Below are positions 8,590 through 14,370 of a DNA stretch of 64,000 nucleotides, piece after piece. The notes beneath the pieces were generated by a model that saw only the letters and a program-made list of their open reading frames with translations, ran no database searches and was not told the DNA's origin. Every line of letters starts with the position of its first letter. The first letter of the stretch is position 1. This DNA is from Candidatus Latescibacterota bacterium (GTDB taxonomy: Bacteria > Latescibacterota > UBA2968 > UBA8231): the NCBI GenBank assembly GCA_965208105.1, contig OZ242318.1, positions 512,001-576,000 on the forward strand. The letters are read 5' to 3'. Made by a program: the position numbers and the translations under genes.

Positions 8590-10584
8590 ATGAAAAACAT
8601 GAACATTAATAATGTATGCCTCTTCCTCGTGGGTATAATAGTATGGCCAACCTGTGGGACGGCAAGTTGGCACCTGAAGGCGTCCGGATATGAAGTTTCC
8701 AAGGTAAGGTATTCGATTTTCGGCGAAGGGTTGAAACAACACCGAGGATACTACTTTCCCGAATACCTGCCCGCAGACCGCGCGTTACATGTCGGATTCA
8801 AGCCCATCCGCTTCCAGAAATTTTCCGCCCTGGCCGAAGCTCTCGGCGCGAAAAGCGAAAAAATCCACGCTTGGAAAACCGAATTTGAGTCTCCTGTCAG
8901 GTGCTTGGACCAGATCACCTTCTTGTATCGCCGCATATATGCCAGGAACGTCAGTGAATACACAATTTATCTCCAATCCCCTCAGACTGAACAGTGGTAC
9001 AGAAAAAGGATAATAATCCCTTTTAAGGGGTACCAGATCCCTTCATACGACGCGATTTCGCAATGGGAACCGTTGGTAGACGACGGCTCCGAAGAGGTAT
9101 CCCAGTTTTTGAGCGAGGTTAACCATTTCGATAAAATTGGCCAATTGGCGATCGTGGTTACTCCCTCGGATACGGACTTCGATTTTGTCATCGGAGACTT
9201 GCAAATAGTGGACCGGGAAATCGGCTATGCCGATTTCCATCATCCTTTTTTCGACCCGATTTTGAGCGAGGATTCCGCCCAGTACATCGAAAGAGATTCC
9301 TTTTACAATGCCTCAGGTATTCCCGCCCTGCTCCTTCCCATCAGTTGTTATGCCATGCACAGGAATTACGGGTCGGTTTTCCATTTCGACCCAGGGAATC
9401 GGGAAGTGGATGCCGGAGACATCAGGGACCTGAAAGTCAACGTTATCAAGCGAATTTTAGAGCTGTACTCATTCTATGAAGAACGCGGATTGGATAGGAA
9501 AAGCGCCCTGAACAGGTTTGCCTTCATCGAGAATTACGGGCTGGACAGAGAAGCTTTCGAGGACAGCGTCCGCGCTTTATTGGCAGATTTTCATGATGCC
9601 CATCTATCCGTAGCAAACAACGCCCATCTATCCATAGCAAACAAGAAGAACAGATGCGCTTTCAATCATCCATTGGCGCTGTACAATATCGGCGGCAAAG
9701 TCTACGTGGCGGCGGTGTTCGACTCCCTACTCGCGGACGATATAGAAGTGGGTATGAAGGTGCTCAAATTTGATGGAGTACCTGTGATTGAAGCGATAGA
9801 CAGGGAAAGCGAGCATTACCGGGGCAGCAGCAAAATAAGAAGAAGGAAAGCGACGAGAAACCTGCTCGCATGCAGGCGAGACGAAAGGGCAACATTGAAA
9901 CTTGCATCTGTTGATGGGGCAGTTAAAGACGTCCTGATTGAAGACAGGAAAGTGCGGATTCCGTCGAATCTCGTGCCGCGACACGGAGAATTCAGGGTAG
10001 AAAGTGGGATAGTGTATTTTCGTATCCGCCAATGGACCTATGACGTGTGGATCCGGTTTTTGAACCATGCGGATGAACTCGAAAGCGCGAAGGGCCTGAT
10101 CATCGATTTGAGGTCCAACGGTGGAGGTGACGGCGGCACGGTGCTAAGGATGGTATCGGCGTTCATAGACGAGAACGCGCTATGTGGGAGCGAGTACTGT
10201 CCCGCCGACGGCAGAATCGAGAGCATGGTGATAAGACCCAACGACAAATTCCATTTCGATCTGCCCGTCGTCATCCTGGCCAATGAGGCGACTGCCTGCG
10301 CAAGCGAGAACTTCATCGATATAATGAGATCTACCAATCGGGCCATCATGGTGGCGGATAGTCACACACAGGGCCTTTTTTCGTCCAGGATCGACTTGAT
10401 ATTCCCGGACGGGATGAGGATTCATACCAATAGCTTATCCAAACCGTTGAGACCCGATGGTTCTTCATACGAGGTAAAGGGGCTCGAGCCAGACATCTGG
10501 GTACACTTGAACACAATTGATGATCTGGCACATCGGGAAGACAAGATACTGCGAACCGCAAATCATCTGCTGGAAGCGCAGTAG
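8590..10584 (+). CDS. S41-family (C-terminal processing/tricorn-like) peptidase with PDZ-like domain; nucleophile position appears to be Cys
   Basis: Hydrophobic N-terminus, ADFHDAH, PDZ-like IEVGMKVLKFDGVPV, GLIIDLRSNGGG, VILANEATACASENF, YEVKGLEPDIWV; RBS GGAGGAG; AT-richer than flanks. Confidence 0.85.
   Translation: MKNMNINNVCLFLVGIIVWPTCGTASWHLKASGYEVSKVRYSIFGEGLKQHRGYYFPEYLPADRALHVGFKPIRFQKFSALAEALGAKSEKIHAWKTEFESPVRCLDQITFLYRRIYARNVSEYTIYLQSPQTEQWYRKRIIIPFKGYQIPSYDAISQWEPLVDDGSEEVSQFLSEVNHFDKIGQLAIVVTPSDTDFDFVIGDLQIVDREIGYADFHHPFFDPILSEDSAQYIERDSFYNASGIPALLLPISCYAMHRNYGSVFHFDPGNREVDAGDIRDLKVNVIKRILELYSFYEERGLDRKSALNRFAFIENYGLDREAFEDSVRALLADFHDAHLSVANNAHLSIANKKNRCAFNHPLALYNIGGKVYVAAVFDSLLADDIEVGMKVLKFDGVPVIEAIDRESEHYRGSSKIRRRKATRNLLACRRDERATLKLASVDGAVKDVLIEDRKVRIPSNLVPRHGEFRVESGIVYFRIRQWTYDVWIRFLNHADELESAKGLIIDLRSNGGGDGGTVLRMVSAFIDENALCGSEYCPADGRIESMVIRPNDKFHFDLPVVILANEATACASENFIDIMRSTNRAIMVADSHTQGLFSSRIDLIFPDGMRIHTNSLSKPLRPDGSSYEVKGLEPDIWVHLNTIDDLAHREDKILRTANHLLEAQ
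9598..9645 (+). repeat. 24-bp in-frame tandem duplication in the S41 gene
   Basis: gcccatctatccgtagcaaacaac / gcccatctatccatagcaaacaag (AHLSVANN / AHLSIANK). Confidence 0.85.
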
Positions 10585-10597
10585 AATCCATAGGCTT

Positions 10598-10900
10598 TGG
10601 AAGGCGACAAACTGTAAGAAAGGAGAACATGCCATGAAAGAGCTCATTAAGCCCAACTTGACTGAGGAAGAGTGCGAGAATAACGAGGTCGCGGCATATT
10701 GCGACCTTTATTCCTGCGCGCCCGTGAGTTGCAACCTTTGGTCGTGTCAACCCGTTTCGGGTGATGACGAGTCCGGGGACATTCTGTTCTAATTGCCAAT
10801 TGTTCAGCGGAGGCCATAACAGCGAAGGACCATTCGCCTGGAACACGTCTCTTGACCGTTTGACCCCATAACTACTTTTCGATCAGTTTGTCGCCTTCCA
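10598..10900. repeat. Perfect 17-bp inverted repeat enclosing the precursor gene
   Basis: TGGAAGGCGACAAACTG (10598-10614) is the exact reverse complement of CAGTTTGTCGCCTTCCA (10884-10900). Confidence 0.92.
10634..10792 (+). CDS. Putative RiPP precursor peptide (52 aa, Cys-rich, repeated core, acidic C-terminal follower)
   Basis: RBS AAGGAG then MKELIKPNLTEEECENNEVAAYCDLYSCAPVSCNLWSCQPVSGDDESGDILF; directly upstream of the rSAM/SPASM gene. Confidence 0.85.
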   Translation: MKELIKPNLTEEECENNEVAAYCDLYSCAPVSCNLWSCQPVSGDDESGDILF

Positions 10901-10978
10901 CGTCTTTCAGAAGCCGTCTTAGACCCTCGGTGAGGATCACTAGGAACTTTAAGGAGGCTTCTTAAAAAGGAAAATGAG

Positions 10979-12460
10979 ATGTTTAAGTTGAGCTATTATA
11001 CCTTCATCATCCCCGTAACCGAGAAGGGGATGTACCTCGCCTATAATTCATTTACCAATGCATTGCTGGAATTGGAGTGGCATGAAGGCAAGAAGATGCT
11101 GGAGTGGAAAAAGAAGGATGCCATTCCCTCTTCGGAACTCGACAGCGAAGAAAAGCGCTTTGTAAACGCTTTGCTCAACAATCACTTTCTGGTAGACGAG
11201 GGGGTTGATGAGAAAGAGCGCTTGCATCGCCGCATTTCTACCCAGAAAGAAAGGTTCTGGAGAGAACCAGCGACCATGGCGCTCACCATATTGCCGACTA
11301 TCTCGTGCAATATGGGTTGTTCCTATTGTTTTGAGGGATACAAGCCGTTCGGCAAGGTTATGAACAATGAGGTCATGGACGATATAGCCGAATTCGTGGT
11401 AAGAGAAATCAAGCAAAGCACTGTCGTCAGTTCCTTCAAAAAAATGTTCATCCAGTGGTACGGGGGGGAGCCCCTGCTGCAACCACATGTCGTCGATAGA
11501 CTTTCGGAAAAATTGTACCGAATCGCCGACGACAACCAAATCCCCTATACTTCGATGATCATTACGAACGGAACCTATCTAACGCCCGCTATATGGGATC
11601 TGTTAAAGGAAGCGAGAATTGACCGGATACAAGTGACCATTGATGGCCACAAGGACTCCCACAACAGGCAACGCCCCCTCACCTTGCCGATCATCGGCCA
11701 GGAAATAGAGGCGGGTAGCTATGACACCATACTGGAAAACCTGAAGTATTTTCCGGACAAGATGGCTCTTAATATCCGGATAAATTCGGATAAGAATATA
11801 ATCAATTCCCTGGGCGACCTCCTGGACGACCTGGAGGAAATTGGCCTGTGGCCTCAGCAGGCTAGCCATGTGAGCCTGACCCTCGCCCATAAGGAAACTC
11901 CTTATGAAGAGTCGGGAGTAGTAGACATCGAGTCTCAGTACTTGAGCCTCAAGCAGCAAACCAAGGCGCAGAAGATATTCCAGGACATGAAGCTCAATCA
12001 CTACAACAATTGGGCCTCCAAAAATAACAGGGTTTTGGCCAGGAAGCGTCTGGCCTACCCTGAACCGGCAACTTTTGTATGTGGGACTGCCTCGCTGCCT
12101 TACAGTTTTTCCATAAGTTACGACGGGCATATTCACCAGTGCATGGAGCAAGTCAACGATCCTAAAGCTAAGTCACATTACATTGGCGATACCTACAATA
12201 TCCACGATCCCCTGCGGAAAATTTTCCTGAACTGGGATAAATTCCTTCACCATCCAATGTGCACTGATTGCAGGGTACTGCCCATATGCGACATGGTTTG
12301 TCCTCACAAGGACCCGCCCGAAGCGTGCTGTGATTGGAAGGTAGACCTCAAATCGCGGTTGAAGGAGCAGTATATCGCGTCCATTGATACGCCCCACCTA
12401 ATTGAGTCTTTCGACGCAGTAGAACAACAGCGGCAGAAAGATTTCACCCTCGTGATATAG
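10979..12460 (+). CDS. Radical SAM/SPASM peptide maturase with N-terminal RRE-like region
   Basis: CNMGCSYC, WYGGEPLL, IITNGT, QVTIDG, SPASM cysteines FVCG...DGHIHQC...CTDCRVLPICDMVC...CC. Confidence 0.93.
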   Translation: MFKLSYYTFIIPVTEKGMYLAYNSFTNALLELEWHEGKKMLEWKKKDAIPSSELDSEEKRFVNALLNNHFLVDEGVDEKERLHRRISTQKERFWREPATMALTILPTISCNMGCSYCFEGYKPFGKVMNNEVMDDIAEFVVREIKQSTVVSSFKKMFIQWYGGEPLLQPHVVDRLSEKLYRIADDNQIPYTSMIITNGTYLTPAIWDLLKEARIDRIQVTIDGHKDSHNRQRPLTLPIIGQEIEAGSYDTILENLKYFPDKMALNIRINSDKNIINSLGDLLDDLEEIGLWPQQASHVSLTLAHKETPYEESGVVDIESQYLSLKQQTKAQKIFQDMKLNHYNNWASKNNRVLARKRLAYPEPATFVCGTASLPYSFSISYDGHIHQCMEQVNDPKAKSHYIGDTYNIHDPLRKIFLNWDKFLHHPMCTDCRVLPICDMVCPHKDPPEACCDWKVDLKSRLKEQYIASIDTPHLIESFDAVEQQRQKDFTLVI

Positions 12461-12474
12461 GGCCCCTAATACCC

Positions 12475-14370
12475 ATGCGAATAGCAATCATAGACAGCGG
12501 AATAGATGCGGGACACAAGCGTCTCAAGAATTGCGTGTGCAGCGGCGTTTCGCTGCGGTGCGGCGAAGAAAAACCCACCCTTAGCTACGAATACGGCGAC
12601 TGCCTGGGCCACGGGACCGCCTGTGCGAGCCTCGTGCACAAGGTGGACCCGCAGGCGGAAATAGTGGCGGTGAAGATATTTCACCGCGAGCTATCCGCCA
12701 AAGAGGAGCTACTTTGTGAAGGTATCAGATGGTGTTTGGGCAACGACATCGACGTCATCAACCTGTCCCTCGGAATCCTGACGGATAGCCCCTCGCAAGC
12801 GCTGATCGGCCTGCTCGAAGAGGCCTTTGTGAAAAACGTCGTCGTCGTCTCGGCGGCGCACAACGACTTGAGGCTGGAATGCTACCCGGCGCATTTCCAC
12901 ACCGTGTTCGGCGTGACCTGGGGAAAGGTGGACCATCACTGCTTGTATGGTTATCTGCCCGACTCGGCCATCGAATTCATCGCCAAGGGGACGATACAGC
13001 GGGTCGCATGGAAAGACGGGGGCTATTCCCTATTGAGCGGAACGAGTATGGCCTGTGCCCATTTCACCGGCATCACCGCGGGCGTACTAAGGCAGAGCCC
13101 CTCTATGTCGGTCGGGGAACTCAGGAGCCACCTTATCGGGAAGGCGGACGCGAATATTCGGGCGCTGCAACCTGGCAGCAAAATTCAGGGAGCCTTCCCG
13201 AGGATCATCAGCGGCGATCTGGACGAGGCGGGACGGAGGCTGTTCCGCTGGGAGGAAAAGATGGATTGGCTGGGGGACCTGGCCCTTTTTCCCGCCAGCG
13301 AAAAGGAGATGAGCGGCTTTGTCGAATTTCCCGGCTATTGTACGCAAAAGATAGCGAAGTACATTGACTACCCAAGAAACATGAAGAGGCAGGCCCCAAA
13401 CGGCAGCGGCAAAAGCGATGCTATCAAAACATACGACAAGATGCTGGACGCGGCGGCTTGCGAAGACTTCGACACGATGGTTCTGGGATATTTTTTTGAT
13501 CAACTCTTTGAGGCGAATATCCGCTTCGGCAACGACTTGCTGGCCGTGTGCATGGAGGCCCAAAAGAACCTCTACGTGTACGACCCCAGGTTGAAAGCTC
13601 ATATCGATAGCCTGAACGGAAGTGCCAAGCCTTTGTTTCGGCTGTATATGCCGGAGGTCAATGGCCGGTTGCACGACCGTGTCATGCAGTTTCGCCATCT
13701 GCCCAGGGTACGGGTGCCCGTCATGGCAGTGATGGGCACGAGCAACCGCCAGGGGAAGTTCACCGCGCAACTCCGGCTCAAAGACATCCTCAACAGAGAG
13801 GAATACAAAGTCTGCCACCTATCCACTGAGCCCCAGGGTGAGTTGTTCGGGGCGGATTTCAGTTTTCCCTATGGCTATAACGGGACAGTTTCCATCCACC
13901 GCAAAAAGTGGTCGATGTTCCTCCGCACCCTGCTCAAAGCCGTCCAGGAATACAACAGACCCCATATCATCCTGACCGGGACACAAGGCATGACGATTCC
14001 CCGGGCACCCAACCAAGCCCCGCTGGGAAATGAATGCGACAGCCTGGAATTCATGTACGGTGTCCATCCTGATGCTTTAGTTTGCGCCATAAATCCCCAG
14101 GATTCCATCGAACTGGTCGTCGACGCGTGCCAGGCGGCCCGGATATTCTGCGGGGCGGAACCCTTGTTTTTCATCATGACTCCCTGGATGAGAGACTACA
14201 CGCGCGCCGGCAACGGCCGCATGGTACGCCATCACCGATACCTGCATAAGGAAGAGATGGCGGAGAAAATGAACCATTTCCAGGAGGTATTGCACAAGCC
14301 GGTCATCGATATCATGGATTTGAACAATGACAAGCTAATCTTGGACGCCATCCAGGATTTCTTTTCGTGA
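12475..14370 (+). CDS. S8 subtilase fused to TIGR04066/DUF1611-like P-loop domain (peptide maturation protein)
   Basis: Triad motifs IAIIDSGID, GHGTACA, SGTSMA and oxyanion AAHN; no signal or propeptide; C-terminal VMAVMGTSNRQGKFTAQL...STEPQGELFG. Confidence 0.8.
   Translation: MRIAIIDSGIDAGHKRLKNCVCSGVSLRCGEEKPTLSYEYGDCLGHGTACASLVHKVDPQAEIVAVKIFHRELSAKEELLCEGIRWCLGNDIDVINLSLGILTDSPSQALIGLLEEAFVKNVVVVSAAHNDLRLECYPAHFHTVFGVTWGKVDHHCLYGYLPDSAIEFIAKGTIQRVAWKDGGYSLLSGTSMACAHFTGITAGVLRQSPSMSVGELRSHLIGKADANIRALQPGSKIQGAFPRIISGDLDEAGRRLFRWEEKMDWLGDLALFPASEKEMSGFVEFPGYCTQKIAKYIDYPRNMKRQAPNGSGKSDAIKTYDKMLDAAACEDFDTMVLGYFFDQLFEANIRFGNDLLAVCMEAQKNLYVYDPRLKAHIDSLNGSAKPLFRLYMPEVNGRLHDRVMQFRHLPRVRVPVMAVMGTSNRQGKFTAQLRLKDILNREEYKVCHLSTEPQGELFGADFSFPYGYNGTVSIHRKKWSMFLRTLLKAVQEYNRPHIILTGTQGMTIPRAPNQAPLGNECDSLEFMYGVHPDALVCAINPQDSIELVVDACQAARIFCGAEPLFFIMTPWMRDYTRAGNGRMVRHHRYLHKEEMAEKMNHFQEVLHKPVIDIMDLNNDKLILDAIQDFFS

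Follow-up and report, generated by a model that had tools for sequence, protein, structure and literature searches.

The subject of this work is a 64,000-nucleotide stretch of the genome of Candidatus Latescibacterota bacterium (assembly GCA_965208105.1, contig OZ242318.1, positions 512,001 to 576,000 of the forward strand), here called the window, in which positions are counted from its first letter. Within it, a small gene for the precursor of a ribosomally made peptide that is modified after translation (RiPP) is flanked by the two arms of a perfect 17-bp inverted repeat. This arrangement, to which we refer as the bracket, is not a product of chance. It recurs around the corresponding gene in related clusters, where the arm sequences differ between lineages, and the substitutions found there very probably mark it as a selected long-range helix in the sense RNA of the operon. 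More tentatively, and with somewhat less than even confidence, we propose that the bracket is the mRNA counterpart of the processing stalk of ribosomal RNA (rRNA): a maintained helix for RNase III excision of a long-lived mini-mRNA with paired ends, which would set the ratio of substrate to enzyme and would be reused by radical S-adenosylmethionine (radical-SAM) RiPP operons of several uncultured phyla.

The helix at the window locus consists of a core and two extensions:

10592..10595, + strand: left side of the outer extension (AGGC) in the minimum free energy (MFE) fold, paired with 10902-10905 with one G·U
10598..10614, + strand: left arm of the helix, 17-bp perfect repeat, sequence TGGAAGGCGACAAACTG
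10618..10625, + strand: Shine-Dalgarno (SD) region of the precursor gene (GAAAGGAG), inner extension of the helix, paired with 10872-10880
10872..10880, + strand: pyrimidine-rich, anti-SD-like segment of the 3' untranslated region (UTR), right side of the inner extension, from the fold
10884..10900, + strand: right arm of the helix, 91 nt past the stop codon of the precursor gene
10902..10905, + strand: right side of the outer extension (GTCT) in the MFE fold

The arms 10598-10614 and 10884-10900 are exact complements over 17 nt and are separated by 269 nt. The outer extension AGGC/GTCT is set off from the core by a 2x1 loop, and the inner one, with a single G·U (10622·10876) and a single bulged A (10874), begins beyond a 3x3 loop (TAA/GAT), so that the complete helix comprises about 29 bp (4 + 17 + 8 bp) with small internal loops between its parts. 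Its loop contains an open reading frame (ORF) of 52 amino acids together with the SD sequence of this frame. RNA folding of positions 10585-10980 (396 nt) recovers the entire interrupted helix at an MFE of -140.3 kcal/mol (z = -4.64), and none of 100 shuffled sequences is equally stable; with 300 nt of context on either side, the mean pair probability of the core is 0.99. A previous reading, made by a model from the letters of the DNA (the sequence-only reading), had described the perfect 17-bp pairing, its inward continuation over the ribosome-binding site with one G·U and one bulge, and the four further pairs outward, and all of these are reproduced here. Between the sequences on either side of the gene, perfect complementarity extends over 17 nt, more than was found in any of 100 shuffles (mean 7.4, maximum 10). 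The 17-mer of the arm occurs exactly twice in the genome of 4,846,116 bp, namely in these two arms.

The bracketed gene stands between the gene of an S41-family peptidase and that of a radical-SAM protein, and relatives of the latter, 79-85%, 53% and 39-46% identical to it, lead to related loci. An alignment of 15 of these relatives (A1) was used for searching genome contigs, where 80 of 276 relatives were taken, and metagenome contigs, where the 80 taken from at least 580 relatives were all at most 32% identical and closer ones may exist. A search of genome contigs with the single radical-SAM protein gave 25 pattern matches, none of them a relative, and 33 genomes of the order containing locus L030 yielded two additional loci. 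The gene order S41-precursor-radical-SAM is found in nine loci: that of the window (WIN), L027, L028, L199, L029, L030, L197, L031 and L107; the comparison does not extend to the loci of five proteins 79-84% identical to the radical-SAM protein (P0002-P0006). The S41 gene was confirmed with Pfam in the window and in the six related loci scanned, and in L197 and L199 it was read from the end of the long upstream ORF.

Homologous loci, to which the sequence-only reading had looked for a decision, keep the repeat wherever this gene order is found: in nine of the nine, a stretch 5' of the precursor ORF is perfectly complementary to one 3' of it. The complement measures 17 nt in WIN, 17 in L027, 11 in L028 (within a 27-nt helix), 12 in L199 (plus a segment of 16 bp), 25 in L029, 18 in L030, 17 in L197, 15 in L031 and 14 in L107. 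The last of these loci is A+T-rich and its complement falls inside its own shuffle range (maximum 16), so the L107 bracket is weak when taken alone. Arm spacing varies between 182 and 321 nt, total helix length is mostly 20-32 bp, and the core pair probability reaches 0.93-0.99 in seven loci with the same context as above. The arm sequences are unrelated among four lineages, WIN/L027, L028/L199/L029, L030/L197/L031 and L107.

In a further scan, which covered the 720 nt upstream of the radical-SAM gene, 8 of 143 loci have a perfect repeat of 13 nt or more with a loop of 80-450 nt, compared with 0 of 143 for a control of equal length within the radical-SAM gene. Five of the eight positive loci belong to the set described above. 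Another, L140, provides a tenth case: a helix of 17+4 bp encloses a Cys-rich ORF of 52 amino acids (MKVLVK...) with its own SD sequence, just upstream of the gene for a radical-SAM protein of another subfamily (TIGR04463-like, 293 bits). As the bracket is thus found beside a second subfamily, its repeated use by radical-SAM RiPP operons is suggested. The remaining two, L055 (14 nt, enclosing no plausible ORF on the + strand) and L065 (13 nt, self-complementary), were not counted as brackets.

Sister loci were compared position by position over the paired parts of the helix, L030 and L031 in a fixed register since MAFFT misaligned their left arms:

WIN/L027: 25 positions, 23 unchanged; one double compensatory change (G-C to A-T, in the core); one one-sided change (G-C to G·U)
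L030/L031: 18 positions, 13 unchanged; two double compensatory changes; one-sided changes two to G·U and one to A×A (terminal)
L030/L197: 18 positions, 16 unchanged; one double compensatory change (A-T to T-A); one one-sided change to C·A
L029/L028: 14 positions, 11 unchanged; no double compensatory change; two Watson-Crick/G·U exchanges and one G×G (terminal)

Four double compensatory changes were found in total. The one-sided change of L027 turns the G-C pair 10623-10875 of the SD/anti-SD extension into G·U, the C·A in the comparison of L030 with L197 occupies a position that is T-A in L031 and looks like an intermediate, and a T·G of L199 corresponds to C-G in L029. Two switches between Watson-Crick and G·U separate the SD pairing of L028 from that of L199. 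Altogether, one-sided transitions at paired positions lead to G·U in eight cases and to A·C in one (binomial P for at least 8 of 9 = 0.02 if both outcomes are equally likely). A G·U pair in the sense strand is a C·A mismatch on the other strand and a plain difference for DNA sites, so this bias points to pairing in the sense RNA. With the bracket in nine of nine loci, differing arms, four double compensatory changes and wobble preferred eight to one, the RNA structure put forward in the sequence-only reading is supported. The MFE of the whole region is lower in the sense strand for six of six loci, but we do not count this as support because base composition could produce it.

Several observations weigh against this picture. 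The sample behind the ratio of eight to one is small, several of its events lie at helix ends, and the limits of the helix come from a folding program that accepts G·U; in the ungapped flanks of the core, G·U and A·C are found at 13 and 10 of 120 positions, respectively. Duplex energies compared between sense and antisense are mixed and show no consistent difference. Perfect Watson-Crick cores of 12-25 bp are an appearance also expected of a repeat maintained at the DNA level. Finally, in five distant loci without an S41 gene, which hold 15 precursor copies (one in L033, six in L034, one in L037, two in L039 and five in L152), the best complement does not rise above chance level (6-9 nt). Since the bracket is missing there, the peptide family as such does not require it.

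Three of these distant loci carry their precursor genes in tandem, with no S41 gene directly upstream and no bracket: six copies in L034 (37-1853, labelled Rhodothermales), five in L152 (638-1511, a metagenome contig) and two in L039 (2459-2869, labelled Pedobacter). Copy number may be an alternative route to a higher precursor dose in these cases.

The bracketed gene and its neighbours form a cluster on the same strand:

8590..10584, + strand: S41-family peptidase gene, 664 aa (Pfam Peptidase_S41, 72.1 bits)
10634..10792, + strand: RiPP precursor gene, 52 aa, with leader MKELIKPN..., Cys-rich core and C-terminal GDILF
10979..12460, + strand: radical-SAM/SPASM peptide maturase gene, 493 aa (best NCBIfam match NF052473; Pfam Radical_SAM)
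12475..14370, + strand: gene of an S8 subtilase fused to a DUF1611-like domain, 631 aa, of the same cluster

The precursor peptide, acidic and rich in Cys, comes with a maturase of its own. It matches NF052472 (FlmA_fam_RIPP) with 28.3 bits (E = 1.5e-6), which does not reach the cut-off of 30, and is therefore termed FlmA-like and not a member of the curated family. Its tail GDILF fits the motif D-(I/V)-L-F, and the adjoining maturase is of the FlmE/OhkG type (NF052473, 378 bits, under the cut-off of 500). Mature products of DD(I/V)LF-type precursors, according to a published account, are still uncharacterised (PMC12703449). The S8/DUF1611-like fusion, also present in four of the six related loci scanned, is followed by an ORF resembling acyl carrier proteins and then by ABC-2 permeases. 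Between 14696 and 18959 there are three tandem paralogous genes of ABC-2-type permeases (466, ~470 and 475 aa), each starting with MFKTI(L/M)F, the first of which was covered by the Pfam scan.

Comparison of the precursor gene (10634-10792) with that of L027 (2657-2815) reveals well conserved leader, C-terminal tail and both UTRs, together with a heavily diverged Cys-rich core containing indels, a pattern that fits rapid diversification of the core peptide. In L030, the left arm and the AUG are about 100 nt apart (2644-2746), more than the 41-45 nt of its sisters L031 and L197. A second SD-like motif (ATGAAAGGAGG) within this stretch resembles the true SD region of L031, so the leader region may be partly duplicated. 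A separate local hairpin, present in the MFE fold at 10905..10966 (+ strand), directly 3' of the right arm, covers the SD sequence (AAGGAGG) of the radical-SAM gene. The corresponding stretch is missing from L027, as a gap in alignment A2, and L028 and L199 have instead a conserved, G+C-rich hairpin of 12 bp immediately 3' of the right arm.

G+C content of the cluster is 49-50% over 9-12 kb, lower than the 61.6% of the genome and the 62-68% reached from 23 kb on. The one further genome of this genus lacks the cluster, and among 168 genomes of the phylum it was matched in four (own genome included), two of which have truncated copies alone. The G+C contrast, the gap in the sister genome and the patchy distribution suggest horizontal acquisition. 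Two decayed clusters were seen as well: L195 (genome G158) retains the last 151 residues of the radical-SAM protein and the S8 gene, at 84-85% identity, and in L036/L008 (genome G030) the radical-SAM protein lacks approximately its first 124 residues and the gene has an in-frame TAA. No precursor was found in the cluster remnants L036 and L195.

We propose the following mechanism for the bracket. The left arm of the window locus begins 13 nt past the stop codon of the S41 gene and would thus be transcribed only with this gene or from a promoter inside it; across loci the distance is 7-31 nt, in which a promoter of its own would hardly fit, if at all. From this arrangement we infer that the arms are co-transcribed with the S41 gene in one operon RNA. 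A scan for promoters and terminators gave nothing in the intergenic parts, and no terminator-like site is present on the + strand at 10793-10978 (6 in the region in total, compared with 3.9 +- 2.1 in shuffles). In the operon RNA, the arms would be the two strands of a long-range helix closing a loop of about 270 nt around the precursor cistron and its ribosome-binding site. They keep a distance of at least 16 nt from the AUG on the upstream side and of at least 17 nt from the precursor stop codon on the downstream side, just outside the zone of initiating and terminating ribosomes, so the stem could remain in place during translation of the precursor. Cuts by the double-strand-specific RNase III in both strands of the stem would detach the precursor cistron from the S41 and radical-SAM messages. 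The released small mRNA would keep its 5' and 3' ends paired, which would slow end-dependent decay, and precursor substrate could then accumulate in excess over the maturation enzymes, the levels of the two being uncoupled. In the window and three other loci, the stem would also lay the pyrimidine-rich segment of the 3' UTR on the SD sequence and so damp translation of the uncut form.

That cutting of the RNase III type releases and stabilises the precursor cistron and uncouples its level from that of the enzyme genes has, in our judgement, nearly an even chance of being correct. RNase III of Bacillus subtilis cuts long-range intramolecular mRNA duplexes of 10-36 bp with cut sites up to 505 nt apart (PMC11780869), and the same type of enzyme cuts the stems flanking 16S and 23S rRNA (PMC6582327). 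With its core of 17 bp, or about 29 bp with the extensions, the helix of the window is within the size range of such mRNA duplexes (~10-36 bp). A gene for RNase III (TIGR02191) scores above cut-off in six of six genomes tested, with 226 bits in the genome of the window, a finding that is merely permissive because the enzyme is nearly universal in bacteria. Likewise on the debit side, none of the eight sequencing runs listed is on record as RNA. No Rfam family matched the bracket, and the sole match, RAGATH-12 at 10932-11017 with 20.2 bits (gathering score 75), is outside it.

The same RNA helix could also work uncut, by tying together the 5' and 3' ends of the precursor cistron. It could then shield the cistron from scanning endonucleases and 3' exonucleases, isolate it from the cistrons next to it, or hold ribosomes that terminate near the start codon. 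All comparative evidence for a selected sense RNA helix fits this possibility equally well, and so does the position of the arms just outside the ribosome-covered zone, where the stem could coexist with translation. We nevertheless regard it as rather unlikely, as a perfect duplex of 14-25 bp is expected to be cut in a cell possessing RNase III, an expectation taken from the B. subtilis targets (PMC11780869).

Improbable as the chief function of the helix is a translational lock, in which 5'-3' pairing keeps the SD sequence hidden and exposure comes only with processing or with translation of the S41 gene upstream. SD scores cover eight loci; not among them are L140 and L107, the AUG of the latter having no SD-like motif within 20 nt. 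Pairing of the SD with a 3'-UTR segment beside the core is found in WIN, L027, L028 and L199, where its probability of being unpaired is 0.01-0.28 (0.16 at the window locus), and in L028 and L199 this pairing has been retained through the two switches between Watson-Crick and G·U pairs. Anti-SD-like sequences hundreds of nucleotides downstream can pair with a ribosome-binding site and repress it in B. subtilis (PMC12697547). In the other four of the eight loci, however, the SD is paired with the 5' UTR (L029) or the ORF (L197 and L031) or is free (L030), and a distance of 41-103 nt separates the core helix from the AUG in L029-L031 and L197. Nor is the peptide a membrane toxin; it is a RiPP precursor, acidic and rich in Cys, that has its own maturase. 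The statement of the sequence-only reading that pairing extends over the SD therefore stands for this locus and falls as a description of the conserved core. With 3'-UTR pairing in only four of eight loci, SD silencing is likely an extra layer in this lineage and not the conserved function.

Very improbable, in our view, is an element acting at the level of DNA, be it a pair of sites for an inversion switch that reverses the precursor gene, a pair of protein-binding sites between which the DNA is looped, or a mobile precursor cassette with the arms as its ends. As perfect inverted repeats of 12-25 bp around some 300 bp, the arms have the geometry of invertons, two sites obliged to stay identical would likewise show matched changes, and the perfect Watson-Crick cores are compatible with a DNA repeat. 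On the other hand, arm sequences are completely different between orthologous loci, and a bias of one-sided changes towards G·U (eight to one) is not expected of DNA sites. The precursor gene has the same orientation as its neighbours in ten of ten assemblies. Logan contigs of four public runs contain no inversion joint at the arms, the check proposed in the sequence-only reading, although this test has low power and used no raw reads (one contig of run X7, ~93% alike, covers the right arm, and run X5 has no cover over the bracket). In the genome of the window (93.9% complete), Resolvase is not matched at all, and of nine Phage_integrase matches the nearest, a tyrosine recombinase, lies at a distance of 122 kb. 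The 16 flanking ORFs scanned in six related loci include no match to recombinase or transposase families, which leaves room for a recombinase acting in trans.

A miniature inverted repeat transposable element (MITE) or another mobile cassette was likewise rejected: the arm is present twice, here only, and the bases adjacent to the arms, CTT on the left and CGT on the right, confirm that there is no target-site duplication, as the sequence-only reading had seen. Because the arm is not a repeated element, no recombinase is nearby and no inverted form was seen, the mobile or invertible cassette which that reading had offered as its alternative is unlikely. The bracket differs in this respect from two MITE-like families of the same genome, which have dozens of copies each (for example C1:136195-136362 and C1:142580-142746). 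Arms of the first family resemble CTAGTGTCCCGTCGCAGA with loops of 124-133 nt, those of the second are CTAGTGCCTGCTTGCG with loops of 134-135 nt, and together they make up most perfect inverted repeats of the genome. That the repeat is a functionless accident or neutral by-product, for example of a past template-switch duplication, is extremely improbable: outside both MITE-like families a hand count gives about 11 perfect repeats in the genome that measure 17 nt or more and have loops of 100-1000 nt, about ten of them besides the bracket, but the bracket stands at the same place in nine of nine orthologous loci, with different sequences and compensatory changes, and the control gave 0 of 143.

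RiPP operons need far more precursor peptide than modifying enzyme, which they are known to obtain through separate promoters or through attenuator hairpins of local type. If the proposed excision is true, a helix enclosing the whole precursor cistron would be a different, post-transcriptional route to precursor excess and a clear case from nature of a gene in mRNA that is framed, as rRNAs are, for excision. In the literature covered, which does not include subscription journals, we found no account of a helix that brackets the gene of a RiPP precursor. The signature of the bracket, a perfect complement between the flanks of a small ORF beside a maturase gene, could help to locate unannotated precursor genes. 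For heterologous expression of such clusters from uncultured bacteria, the bracket would have to be either kept intact or deliberately removed.

Several known systems resemble the bracket in part. Invertons share with it perfect inverted repeats flanking a few hundred bp, but the bracket has no invertase nearby, no second orientation, no internal promoter-like site and no conserved arms, and its substitutions are wobble-biased; with one orientation in all ten assemblies and no recombinase near the locus, it was not assigned to this class. Type I toxin mRNAs of the hok type are inhibited by fold-back through 5'-3' pairing. They are, like the bracketed cistron, small-peptide mRNAs of a few hundred nucleotides with paired ends, and some bracket loci also have a hidden SD. 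The cistron discussed here, however, lies within an operon, its SD is occluded by the 3' UTR in half of the eight loci scored, and it encodes an acidic, Cys-rich peptide and not a small hydrophobic toxin, so membership in this class was rejected (antisense RNA was not looked for).

The local hairpin/terminator after the precursor gene in mccA-mccB of microcin C sets the ratio of precursor to enzyme (PMC4231749). The purpose is likely the same as that of the bracket, namely more message for precursor than for enzyme from one operon, but hairpins of the mccA type are local 3' stem-loops acting on termination, in contrast to the bracket stem, which joins the 5' and 3' flanks and encloses the gene. 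As no terminator-like site is found on the + strand between the precursor and radical-SAM genes, the bracket was not classed as an intrinsic terminator or attenuator either. Closer to it are the mRNA duplexes cut by RNase III in B. subtilis (PMC11780869): bracket cores of 12-25 bp, 182-321 nt apart, are within their range, and the passages considered do not describe those targets as conserved whole-gene brackets or as features of peptide natural-product operons. The organisms with brackets are uncultured, and records labelled Latescibacterota and Gemmatimonadota are among them.

Stalk helices of rRNA keep their position while their sequence drifts by compensatory changes, and they serve excision from a polycistronic transcript. 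The bracket differs from them in that it encloses a protein-coding cistron of 150 nt with its ribosome-binding site and not a stable RNA, that its helix is 14-25 bp long plus extensions, and that cleavage is here a proposal. What it has in common with the stalks of 16S and 23S rRNA (PMC6582327) is that the flanks of a functional unit pair with each other over a long distance.

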